Source of the DNA: Escherichia coli
GTDB taxonomy: Bacteria; Pseudomonadota; Gammaproteobacteria; Enterobacterales; Enterobacteriaceae
Assembly (NCBI RefSeq): GCF_048403405.1
Contig: NZ_CP183129.1
Strand: one strand, 5' to 3'
DNA: 64,000 nt
The position numbers were made by a program, and so were the translations under genes. The notes beneath the pieces are model-generated. The model ran no database searches and was not told the origin of the DNA. It saw nothing but the letters and a program-made list of their open reading frames with translations. The first letter of the stretch is position 1. Every line of letters starts with the position of its first letter. Of this stretch, positions 8,004 to 11,777 are shown one piece after another.

Positions 8004-8733
8004 TTACAATAACCATTCCACAGGCAATATCGACGCCAGTCTGACCATAACCCGCTTCCAGAAACTGGTGGCGGGTTCTTTTTTGAGAACAATCTCTTTC
8101 TTTGCATGACGATCAACCCAGTTGATCCGTCCCCACCTGTCCAGACGGAGCTGCCAGGCCGCATCATACTGGCTCTGAATAAAGCGTTTATCAATTAACT
8201 GTGCCAGCGTTTCGCTCTCTATCACGAAACCCATTTCAGTATTGAGCAATGTTGAACGCGGATCGAAATTGAAAGAGCCGATAAACACCGTTTTACCATC
8301 GATGCTAAAGGTTTTAGCATGCAGGCTGGCACCGGAATTACCGGTTATGCCGCGATCGTGTAACGTACTACTTTGTTCACGCGTCGGCTTGAGTTCATAT
8401 AATTCCACGCCGTAGCGGAGCAATTTTTTGCGCCAGCGTGCGTATCCGGCATGGACGACAGCAACATCGTTAGCGGCAAGAGAATTGGTTAGGATCGCAA
8501 TCTTTACCCCTTTTCTCACCATCCGTAAGAGTTGCGCCACACCTGCGCGTGTCGGTACAAAATAGGCAGAGATAATATCGATGCGTTCACTGGGTGAGCC
8601 CATGATATCGAACAGGCGCTGCGGTAACAGTGAATGCCGTTTTGCCTTGCCCTCCCCTTTCGCCGGATCATCACTTAATAAACGTGTTTTCGCCCAGATA
8701 AGCGGCAACGTTCCATCAACCAGATGATTTATA
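8004..8733 (-). pseudogene. clsC: clsC (ymdC) 3' fragment: C-terminal PLD domain of cardiolipin synthase C, separated from its 5' part by the ISEcp1-bla insertion
   Basis: Contains second HKD motif HAKTFSIDGKTVFIGSFNFD; reading frame continues through 8709-8733 (TLPLIW... preceded by NHLVDGT) up to the ISEcp1 left end. Confidence 0.9.
8729..8733. repeat. Target-site duplication TTATA (left copy)
   Basis: 5 bp immediately left of ISEcp1 IRL; identical 5 bp immediately right of the truncated IS903 end at 11773-11777. Confidence 0.8.
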
Positions 8734-8919
8734 CCTAGATTCTACGTCAGTACTTCAAAAAGCATAATCAAAGCCTTGATAAATATGCATTCCTTCGAAA
8801 TTCAGCTTTCACCCATTGGGTGAAAGAAAAGTGCTCAAAAATATGTTAAATTATCAGCTTTTATGACTCGATATATGGTAAAATAATAGTAAGAAAAGTA
8901 GTAAAAAGGGGTTCTAATT

Positions 8920-10182
8920 ATGATTAATAAAATTGATTTCAAAGCTAAGAATCTAACATCAAATGCAGGTCTTTTTCTGCTCCTTGAGAATGCAAAAAGC
9001 AATGGGATTTTTGATTTTATTGAAAATGACCTCGTATTTGATAATGACTCAACAAATAAAATCAAGATGAATCATATAAAGACCATGCTCTGCGGTCACT
9101 TCATTGGCATTGATAAGTTAGAACGTCTAAAGCTACTTCAAAATGATCCCCTCGTCAACGAGTTTGATATTTCCGTAAAAGAACCTGAAACAGTGTCACG
9201 GTTTCTAGGAAACTTCAACTTCAAGACAACCCAAATGTTTAGAGACATTAATTTTAAAGTCTTTAAAAAACTGCTCACTAAAAGTAAATTGACATCCATT
9301 ACGATTGATATTGATAGTAGTGTAATTAACGTAGAAGGTCATCAAGAAGGTGCGTCAAAAGGATATAATCCTAAGAAACTGGGAAACCGATGCTACAATA
9401 TCCAATTTGCATTTTGCGACGAATTAAAAGCATATGTTACCGGATTTGTAAGAAGTGGCAATACTTACACTGCAAACGGTGCTGCGGAAATGATCAAAGA
9501 AATTGTTGCTAACATCAAATCAGACGATTTAGAAATTTTATTTCGAATGGATAGTGGCTACTTTGATGAAAAAATTATCGAAACGATAGAATCTCTTGGA
9601 TGCAAATATTTAATTAAAGCCAAAAGTTATTCTACACTCACCTCACAAGCAACGAATTCATCAATTGTATTCGTTAAAGGAGAAGAAGGTAGAGAAACTA
9701 CAGAACTGTATACAAAATTAGTTAAATGGGAAAAAGACAGAAGATTTGTCGTATCTCGCGTACTGAAACCAGAAAAAGAAAGAGCACAATTATCACTTTT
9801 AGAAGGTTCCGAATACGACTACTTTTTCTTTGTAACAAATACTACCTTGCTTTCTGAAAAAGTAGTTATATACTATGAAAAGCGTGGTAATGCTGAAAAC
9901 TATATCAAAGAAGCCAAATACGACATGGCGGTGGGTCATCTCTTGCTAAAGTCATTTTGGGCGAATGAAGCCGTGTTTCAAATGATGATGCTTTCATATA
10001 ACCTATTTTTGTTGTTCAAGTTTGATTCCTTGGACTCTTCAGAATACAGACAGCAAATAAAGACCTTTCGTTTGAAGTATGTATTTCTTGCAGCAAAAAT
10101 AATCAAAACCGCAAGATATGTAATCATGAAGTTGTCGGAAAACTATCCGTACAAGGGAGTGTATGAAAAATGTCTGGTATAA
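8920..10182 (+). CDS. tnpA: ISEcp1 transposase, 420 aa
   Basis: 420-aa ORF MINKIDFKAKNLTSNAGLFLLLENAKSNGIFDF... matching recalled ISEcp1 Tnp; AT-rich codon usage unlike flanking chromosome. Confidence 0.92.
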   Translation: MINKIDFKAKNLTSNAGLFLLLENAKSNGIFDFIENDLVFDNDSTNKIKMNHIKTMLCGHFIGIDKLERLKLLQNDPLVNEFDISVKEPETVSRFLGNFNFKTTQMFRDINFKVFKKLLTKSKLTSITIDIDSSVINVEGHQEGASKGYNPKKLGNRCYNIQFAFCDELKAYVTGFVRSGNTYTANGAAEMIKEIVANIKSDDLEILFRMDSGYFDEKIIETIESLGCKYLIKAKSYSTLTSQATNSSIVFVKGEEGRETTELYTKLVKWEKDRRFVVSRVLKPEKERAQLSLLEGSEYDYFFFVTNTTLLSEKVVIYYEKRGNAENYIKEAKYDMAVGHLLLKSFWANEAVFQMMMLSYNLFLLFKFDSLDSSEYRQQIKTFRLKYVFLAAKIIKTARYVIMKLSENYPYKGVYEKCLV

Positions 10183-10285
10183 TAAGAATATCATCAATAA
10201 AATTGAGTGTTGCTCTGTGGATAACTTGCAGAGTTTATTAAGTATCATTGCAGCAAAGATGAAATCAATGATTTATCAAAAATGA

Positions 10286-10315
10286 TTGAAAGGTGGTTGT
10301 AAATAATGTTACAAT
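10286..10315 (+). promoter_or_regulatory. ISEcp1-borne outward promoter driving blaCTX-M (-35 TTGAAA, 18-bp spacer, -10 TACAAT)
   Basis: Hexamers read at 10286-10291 and 10310-10315 just inside the ISEcp1 right end, about 120 bp upstream of bla ATG. Confidence 0.7.
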
Positions 10316-10431
10316 GTGTGAGAAGCAGTCTAAATTCTTCGTGAAATAGTGATTTTTGAAGCTAATAAAAAACACACGTGGAATTTAGGGAATACTGATG
10401 TAACACGGATTGACCGTATTGGGAGTTTGAG

Positions 10432-11307
10432 ATGGTGACAAAGAGAGTGCAACGGATGATGTTCGCGGCGGCGGCGTGCATTCCGCTGCTGCTGGGCAGC
10501 GCGCCGCTTTATGCGCAGACGAGTGCGGTGCAGCAAAAGCTGGCGGCGCTGGAGAAAAGCAGCGGAGGGCGGCTGGGCGTCGCGCTCATCGATACCGCAG
10601 ATAATACGCAGGTGCTTTATCGCGGTGATGAACGCTTTCCAATGTGCAGTACCAGTAAAGTTATGGCGGCCGCGGCGGTGCTTAAGCAGAGTGAAACGCA
10701 AAAGCAGCTGCTTAATCAGCCTGTCGAGATCAAGCCTGCCGATCTGGTTAACTACAATCCGATTGCCGAAAAACACGTCAACGGCACAATGACGCTGGCA
10801 GAACTGAGCGCGGCCGCGTTGCAGTACAGCGACAATACCGCCATGAACAAATTGATTGCCCAGCTCGGTGGCCCGGGAGGCGTGACGGCTTTTGCCCGCG
10901 CGATCGGCGATGAGACGTTTCGTCTGGATCGCACTGAACCTACGCTGAATACCGCCATTCCCGGCGACCCGAGAGACACCACCACGCCGCGGGCGATGGC
11001 GCAGACGTTGCGTCAGCTTACGCTGGGTCATGCGCTGGGCGAAACCCAGCGGGCGCAGTTGGTGACGTGGCTCAAAGGCAATACGACCGGCGCAGCCAGC
11101 ATTCGGGCCGGCTTACCGACGTCGTGGACTGTGGGTGATAAGACCGGCAGCGGCGACTACGGCACCACCAATGATATTGCGGTGATCTGGCCGCAGGGTC
11201 GTGCGCCGCTGGTTCTGGTGACCTATTTTACCCAGCCGCAACAGAACGCAGAGAGCCGCCGCGATGTGCTGGCTTCAGCGGCGAGAATCATCGCCGAAGG
11301 GCTGTAA
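10432..11307 (+). CDS. blaCTX-M-14: Class A extended-spectrum beta-lactamase CTX-M, CTX-M-9 group (sequence consistent with CTX-M-14), 291 aa
   Basis: [32 protein letters not shown]...; motifs STSK, SDN, E166 omega loop, KTG; D240 (GSGDYGTT) and V231 (SWTVGDK) as in CTX-M-14; 42-bp spacer from ISEcp1 IRR typical of this group. Confidence 0.9.
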
Positions 11308-11772
11308 CTGGTTTTGTTGAATAAATCGAACTTTTGCTGAGTTGAAGGATCAGATCACGTATCTTCCCGACAACGCAGACCGTTCCGTGGCAAAGCAAAA
11401 GTTCAAAATCACCAACTGGCCCACCTACAATAAAGCCCTCATCAACCGTGGCTCCATAACTTTCTGGCTGGATGATGAAGCTATTCAGGCCTGGTATGAG
11501 TCAGCAACACCTTCTTCACGAGGCAGACCTCAGCGCTATTCTGACCTTGCCATCACGACTGTGCTGGTCATTAAACGCGTATTCAGGCTGACCCTGCGCG
11601 CTGCGCAGGGCTTTATTGATTCCATTTTTTCTCTGATGAACGTTCCGCTACGCTGCCCGGATTACAGCTGTGTCAGCAGGCGGGCAAAGTCGGTTAATAT
11701 CAGTTTCAAAACGCCCACCCGGGGTGAAATCGCACACCTGGTAATTGATTCCACCGGGCTGAAGGTCTTCGG
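11308..11772 (+). mobile_element. IS903 (IS5 family) 5' fragment, truncated after ~465 bp
   Basis: Starts right after bla stop with IS903-like terminal IR ggttttgttgaataaatcg; encodes transposase N-terminus up to ...LVIDSTGLKVFG, then sequence switches to clsC. Confidence 0.8.
11342..11772 (+). pseudogene. Truncated IS903 transposase (N-terminal ~143 aa of ~307)
   Basis: MKDQITYLPDNADRSVAKQKFKITNWPTYNKALINRGS... matches recalled IS903 Tnp; track ORF 11342..11803 reads through into clsC antisense before stopping. Confidence 0.8.
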
Positions 11773-11777
11773 TTATA
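11773..11777. repeat. Target-site duplication TTATA (right copy)
   Basis: Identical to 8729-8733; deleting 8734-11777 restores an in-frame clsC (…SSPFINHLVDGTLPLIWAKTR…). Confidence 0.8.

Follow-up and report, generated by a model that had tools for sequence, protein, structure and literature searches.

A known ISEcp1–blaCTX-M-14–ΔIS903B transposition unit in the Escherichia coli chromosome, inserted within clsC

The stretch of DNA considered here, 64,000 nt of Escherichia coli contig NZ_CP183129.1 (assembly GCF_048403405.1; the whole stretch is hereafter termed the window), contains an extended-spectrum β-lactamase (ESBL) gene, blaCTX-M-14, carried into the chromosomal gene clsC within an ISEcp1 transposition unit. 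This unit occupies positions 8734–11772 (3,039 bp) and consists, in order, of a complete copy of the insertion sequence (IS) ISEcp1, a 42 bp spacer (10390–10431, + strand) connecting the right inverted repeat (IRR) of that element to the bla start codon, blaCTX-M-14 itself, and nt 1–463 of IS903B. It is bordered on each side by the pentamer TTATA, with the left target-site duplication lying at 8729–8733 and the right, which matches it exactly, at 11773–11777. An earlier note on this DNA, made from the sequence alone, had given the same block coordinates, a 1656 bp ISEcp1, the 42 bp spacer and these two pentamers, all of which hold on re-reading of the sequence; the repeat is exactly 5 bp at both ends, and its extension to 6–11 bp fails.

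ISEcp1, a member of the IS1380 family, extends over 8734–10389 (+ strand; 1,656 bp), is identical to the ISEcp1 of RefSeq-annotated units, and is present as a single copy in the 64 kb window. Its left inverted repeat (IRL), CCTAGATTCTACGT (8734–8747, +), and its IRR, ACGTGGAATTTAGG (10376–10389, +), are complementary at 12 of 14 positions; this pair is absent from the top 25 results of an inverted-repeat finder and was compared directly instead. Between them lies an intact transposase gene from the list of open reading frames (ORFs; 8920–10182, +; 420 aa), the product of which is WP_000608644.1 in identical units and scores 329.6 bits (cutoff 180) on NF033539, the NCBIfam model for IS1380-family transposases. 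With a complete IS, both inverted repeats and an intact transposase, the block belongs amongst the ISEcp1 transposition units. Facing outwards from the right end of ISEcp1 is a promoter-like site (TTGAAA-18 nt-TACAAT; 10286–10315, +), which displays 10 of 12 consensus matches and a TG ahead of the −10 hexamer, and is located 116 nt 5′ of the bla ATG. It is well established that ISEcp1 drives an adjacent bla gene from a promoter at its right end, and the site at 10286–10315 is the probable driver of blaCTX-M-14. Also just inside this end is the sequence CTAAATTCTTCGTG (10330–10343), which resembles IRL, is complementary to IRR (here 10375–10388) at 12 of 14 positions, and could form a hairpin with it across 31 nt.

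The resistance gene is intact (10432–11307, +; 291 aa), and its product displays the class A motifs STSK-73, SDN-133, EPTLN-169 and KTG-237, scoring 620.7 bits (cutoff 570) over residues 1–291 on the CTX-M family model NF033089. It had previously been described as an ESBL gene of the CTX-M-9 group, which is correct and can be narrowed by nucleotide identity with annotated units: not one nucleotide differs between the 3,039 bp unit and units carrying the RefSeq label CTX-M-14 (WP_001617865.1), and the allele is therefore CTX-M-14. A plasmid copy of the same bla allele is called as 100 % blaCTX-M-14 by AMRFinderPlus.

Two base pairs (CT) separate the bla stop codon from the IS903B fragment (11310–11772, +), the presence of which had been recognized in the earlier note with a length of ~465 bp, here corrected to 463 bp. 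It comprises nt 1–463 of the 1,057 of IS903B, including the left inverted repeat GGTTTTGTTGAATAAATC and the first 144 transposase codons, without the right inverted repeat; its match to NF033579 is confined to positions 1–122 of the 289-position profile. All 463 of its nucleotides are identical to the intact IS903B (1,057 bp, with 18 bp terminal repeats) of the IncK2/Z plasmid pMTY2820 (pMTY2820_IncBOKZ), and the inverted repeat agrees with that given for IS903 in PMC7864471. A mobile IS903B would need the full 1,057 bp, both 18 bp repeats and a whole transposase, and what is present here is no more than a fragment of it. The right boundary of the unit is formed within this fragment, downstream of IRR, by a surrogate end (IRalt; ...CTGAAGGTCTTCGG, 11759–11772, +) that lies 1,383 bp past IRR, with its last 14 nt matching IRR at 6 of 14 positions, and that is shared as a boundary with comparison loci L001, L003, L004, L011 and L012, in each of which another 5 bp duplication comes immediately after it. 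Weak matches to IRR are typical of ISEcp1 surrogate ends. Also inside the fragment, 3′ of bla, is a GC-rich, terminator-like hairpin (11592–11610, +) formed by CCCTGCGCGCTGCGCAGGG followed by CTTTATTGAT, which might curb transcription running on into clsC and ymdB in the antisense direction.

With regard to base composition, the block had been described as AT-rich relative to its surroundings, which is true of ISEcp1 (33.2 % GC) and overstated for the remainder, given values of 60.5 % for bla and 50.3 % for the IS903B part. The whole unit has a GC content of 43.8 %, with flanks of 46–49 %, and the 40 bp surrounding the target are 35 % GC.

The gene in which the unit resides is clsC (ymdC), as evidenced by the product of the restored ORF, which is that annotated as ClsC, by its two phospholipase D (PLD)/HKD domains, and by the adjacent ymdB. 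The insertion point falls at clsC nt 753–757, approximately codon 251–253 of 493, and the unit is transcribed in the direction opposite to clsC. The 5′ part of the gene (11773–12529, − strand) retains codons 1 to ~252 and the first HKD motif, with its frame entering antisense IS903B sequence and stopping at 11648, and the 3′ part (8004–8733, −) runs from ~codon 252 to the stop codon and encodes the second HKD motif and a PLDc_2 domain, severed from promoter and start codon. In ClsC, the PLDc_2 domains span residues 58–203 and 292–435, and the HKD motifs fall at residues 150 and 389; the unit has thus come to sit between the two domains, and likewise between the two motifs, so that the catalytic halves are separated. 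On this basis clsC is very probably inactivated. Its upstream partner gene ymdB (12471–13004, −), which belongs to the context rather than to the unit, is intact, and mdoC, the next gene past the 3′ end of clsC, is convergent with it; for these reasons no polar effect on other genes would be expected.

The most direct evidence as to how this arrangement came about is provided by comparison with an uninterrupted site. Deletion of the block plus one TTATA from the window yields a restored window of 60,956 bp and a continuous clsC ORF, identical to WP_072265111.1, the ClsC of strain 4621, so that the in-frame restoration proposed in the earlier note is borne out. Strain 4621, a blood isolate from Houston, has a single TTATA at the corresponding position and an intact clsC, with mdoH-mdoG-mdoC, ymdB, ymdA and csg around the site. 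The comparison with a wild-type clsC that had been suggested as a check could thereby be run, and the restored window displays 0 mismatches to NZ_CP103479.1 (strain 4621) across the 11,439 bp that surround the site, and 2 SNPs (single-nucleotide polymorphisms) from the strain 4621 chromosome over all 60,956 bp. An AT-rich 5 bp duplication (TTATA) and an empty site in a relative (strain 4621) are thus both present. Whilst a 5 bp match between flanks is expected by chance in about 1 of 1,024 cases, the empty-site comparison is a stronger test, and the unit is the sole structural difference from this near-identical chromosome. Elsewhere in the window, yccE (~50234–51494, −) is a frameshifted pseudogene in the annotation of strain 4621, and neither of the two window mismatches falls there.

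The surroundings of the site are chromosomal over a far longer distance. Window positions 11778–36000 and 36001–60900 are each 100.0 % identical (a rounded value) to six complete E. coli chromosomes, namely those of strains 4621, MS 69-1, GN02461, TUM1226 and TUM14771, and record OX030728. Outside the insertion, the window (60,956 bases) is collinear in all six of these complete genomes with the core arrangement mdoGH-mdoC-clsC-ymdB-csg-pga-efe-put-rut-tor. The match of the restored window to strain 4621 shows that the unit lies in the chromosome and was inserted cleanly, and the empty site together with the six collinear genomes sustains the view taken in the earlier note, that this is a single ISEcp1-mediated transposition into the chromosome and not a plasmid segment.

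The unit itself is well known beyond this locus. Amongst 5,426 complete E. coli genomes, 244 have a place covering at least 80 % of a 3.7 kb query, a threshold that corresponds to the unit without its clsC flanks; 12 such loci were examined and their boundaries compared. The identical 3,039 bp unit (0 mismatches, same boundaries) is found at no fewer than five other E. coli chromosomal sites, each with its own AT-rich 5 bp duplication: at the 3′ end of yadL in E41-1 (TATAA), in a carbohydrate porin gene in KUN2017-0933 (GATTA), between ptsP and ypdE in WP4-S18-ESBL-09 (GTTAA), in a major facilitator superfamily (MFS) transporter gene in KMi006 (GTAAA), and in a hypothetical gene in strain 631 (TCTAT). 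These units share their sequence and ends with the one described here, differing in landing site, and none is in clsC; it is accordingly a known and recurrent ISEcp1 transposition unit. A second class, of 3,060 bp, has the same ISEcp1–blaCTX-M-14–ΔIS903B content with a surrogate end located 21 bp deeper into IS903B (...GGAAAGTCAA; 7 of 14 positions matching IRR), and is represented by AVS0947 (L002:1508-4567, in pgrR) and isolate 23S01245-7 (L008, in a gene for a LysR-family regulator). In this class the same TAATA duplication occurs at two unrelated sites in the two strains.

A further copy of the 3,039 bp unit, in strain E17 (L007; NZ_CM143886.1), has 1 mismatch, non-matching flanks and no duplication, within a record that contains six matching places. 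To its left is a bcsC-related fragment ending ...CTTATA, and to its right citX, starting TTTTA..., which suggests rearrangement between two copies of the unit after insertion. In addition, a longer unit, in which ISEcp1–blaCTX-M-14–ΔIS903B is accompanied by a truncated lamB, occurs both on an IncL/M-type plasmid (L006; IR53017) and in the chromosome of Z0117EC0032, within fepA (L013), and these look like a plasmid-to-chromosome pair with captured porin DNA.

On plasmids, at least 521 records match at least 80 % of the unit, and come from Klebsiella, Escherichia, Salmonella and other genera; the unbroken 3,039 bp sequence is also found inside larger plasmid units, as in L006. The plasmid-borne ISEcp1–blaCTX-M-14–IS903B arrangements (pMTY2820 of IncK2/Z type, as well as many IncF, IncI and IncL/M plasmids) share with the clsC unit the bla allele, the 2 bp junction and IS903B nt 1–463. 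They differ in that pMTY2820 possesses full-length IS903B (1,057 bp), whereas the clsC unit, located in the chromosome, stops at IS903B nt 463, and in that most of the top-ranked plasmid matches have an ISEcp1 interrupted by another IS (IS1A, ISVsa5 or IS903B), whilst that of the clsC unit is intact. Ultimately, the unit probably derives from plasmids of this kind, which occur in Escherichia, Klebsiella and Salmonella.

Comparable events have been described by others. In E. coli from river water, Gomi et al. reported eight chromosomal ISEcp1–blaCTX-M units of 2,855–11,093 bp, all with AT-rich 5 bp duplications, and found 6 of 9 combinations of unit and site to be missing from nr/nt (PMC9325909). 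Bloodstream isolates from Houston harbour ISEcp1–blaCTX-M-55 in envZ and fhuA (PMC10449519), and under cephalosporin pressure a 3,097 bp ISEcp1–blaCTX-M-14–IS903 element made copies of itself elsewhere in the chromosome (PMC9241692). No published unit given as 3,039 bp was found in the searchable literature. The chromosomal ISEcp1–blaCTX-M-15/-55 units of sequence type 131 (ST131), river-water and bloodstream isolates share with the present unit their mechanism and the disruption of genes such as envZ and fhuA (PMC9325909, PMC10449519). They differ from it in bla group, spacer and downstream cargo, which is orf477 in those units and IS903B in the one in clsC.

As to whether the landing site has been seen before, neither of two 160 bp clsC junction queries was covered to 80 % or more at any place amongst the 5,426 complete E. 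coli genomes, and a 34-mer from the left junction had 0 matches in Joint Genome Institute (JGI) metagenome contigs. At the protein level, the junction-specific or truncated ORF products, in seven start-codon variants, had no exact match amongst ~15 billion proteins. In the searchable literature, ISEcp1 was not found paired with clsC or ymdC, and with 'cardiolipin synthase' only in a general review. Hence the element is a known one, and its landing site in clsC is apparently the sole new feature, although the word 'unreported' is provisional, as most draft assemblies lie outside the DNA-level searches.

Taken as a whole, we regard it as highly probable that the block was placed in clsC by one ISEcp1-mediated 'one-ended' transposition event, and the sequence holds no feature that contradicts this. 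According to the proposed mechanism, the ISEcp1 transposase would have used IRL (8734), skipped its own IRR (10389), and engaged instead the weakly similar surrogate end that lies 1,383 bp downstream, inside IS903B, and finishes at 11772. The 3,039 bp unit, made up of ISEcp1, blaCTX-M-14 and nt 1–463 of IS903B, would then have moved as a whole, entering the AT-rich pentamer TTATA at clsC nt 753–757 and duplicating it, after which bla would be expressed from the right-end promoter of ISEcp1, with clsC split between its HKD domains. The donor was probably either a plasmid with full IS903B or a pre-formed 3,039 bp unit. Two points set limits to this account: the agreement of the surrogate end with IRR is only 6 of 14, so that its use is deduced from the boundary and not from a recognizable motif, and T11773 is ambiguous, since IS903B also continues with T. 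The end of the unit is nonetheless fixed at 11772 by the 5 bp duplication and by the five comparison loci with the same boundary. A 3,040 bp unit, with T11773 counted as IS903B, was considered and rejected, as its flanks would contain no repeat and a non-T base follows ...CTTCGG at the five loci. That the unit recurs unchanged at many sites is compatible both with preferential use of one surrogate end and with spread of the unit as a discrete transposon. As transposase, IRL and surrogate end are all intact, the unit presumably retains the capacity to move or to be amplified.

Several other origins for this arrangement can be envisaged. ISEcp1–blaCTX-M-14–IS903B is very common on plasmids and IS elements are a familiar cause of assembly errors, and one might suppose that the block is really plasmid-borne, or that the contig is a chimera joined via repeated IS sequence. 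Such an artefact is very improbable here, however, as the flanks are two halves of one gene that fit back together without error, a single pentamer having been duplicated, as the restored window is collinear over its full length with a complete chromosome only 2 SNPs away, and as the IS903B end coincides with the boundary found at five independent, genuine insertions; a misjoin, moreover, would not generate a target-site duplication at both ends. Less improbable than an artefact, though still unlikely, is that transposition took place in another strain and that the clsC::unit allele was subsequently imported by homologous recombination, via transduction or conjugative transfer. E. coli strains commonly exchange chromosomal segments by recombination, and the date and place of the clsC insertion are not fixed by the data. 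Import of this kind sits poorly, nevertheless, with the 60,956 bases outside the insertion, which are 2 SNPs from the relatives of this lineage and reveal no imported tract, and with the occurrence of the clsC junction in 0 of the 5,426 complete genomes, which leaves no known potential donor.

Another possibility is that a different element moved the block, be it IS903B by its own transposition, a composite transposon or a translocatable unit of the IS26 type. This would draw on the IS903B sequence at the right end of the block, and on the frequent flanking of blaCTX-M-14/27 by IS26 and IS903 on plasmids (PMC7864471), but is the least probable of these alternatives. The IS903B fragment has neither a right inverted repeat nor two thirds of its transposase, and the outer ends of the block are ISEcp1 IRL and a non-IS903 end. 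In addition, the ORF list and a repeat check of the window reveal no IS26 or any other IS inside the block, and there is no second IS copy bounding it. Target-site duplications are 9 bp for IS903 and 8 bp for IS26; the duplication observed here is of neither size, and at 5 bp and AT-rich is the signature of ISEcp1. The two flanking copies of one IS, with an 8 or 9 bp duplication, that characterize composite or IS26-type transposons are thus not present at this locus.

Concerning the consequences for the cell, ClsC condenses phosphatidylethanolamine and phosphatidylglycerol, ClsA is the main cardiolipin synthase, and ClsB and ClsC make little cardiolipin, doing so only in late log or stationary phase (PMC8027125). 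A low fitness cost for the loss of clsC would be a reasonable expectation from these properties. It is also conceivable, albeit improbable, that the knockout is not neutral, and that altered envelope lipids in stationary phase help a CTX-M-14 producer to tolerate β-lactam or envelope stress, such that the site was selected rather than hit by accident; transcription from bla that runs on antisense into ymdB-clsC might possibly contribute to the lipid change. More likely than a selected clsC knockout is that the 3,039 bp unit, with its fixed end at IS903B nt 463, is a discrete, self-propagating transposon.

Beyond the insertion, the window contains a number of matches to Rfam families. A strong match to the Yersinia small RNA (sRNA) Ysr251 (29560–29753, +; 192.8 bits, gathering score 100) is antisense to the 3′ end of phoH, ES056 (15480–15571, +) is located just 5′ of csgD, and ES036 (CssrF; 2300–2342, +) lies between yceK and mdoH. 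A cspA-type thermoregulator match at cspG (63743–64000, −) is cut by the end of the window.

Chromosomal ISEcp1–blaCTX-M units with AT-rich 5 bp duplications are reported routinely at new sites (PMC9325909, PMC10449519), and the insertion in clsC adds one more landing site to a long list, leaving the understanding of ISEcp1 and CTX-M biology unchanged. Its junction, CAACCAGATGATTTATA|CCTAGATTCTACGTCAG, offers an exact marker of the clone, by which this sublineage can be tracked. In the chromosome, the ESBL gene is inherited vertically without a plasmid, and is consequently harder to lose and missed by plasmid-centred surveillance. At the same time, an intact ISEcp1 is able to copy the gene to new sites, or to amplify it, under cephalosporin pressure (PMC9241692, PMC10449519).

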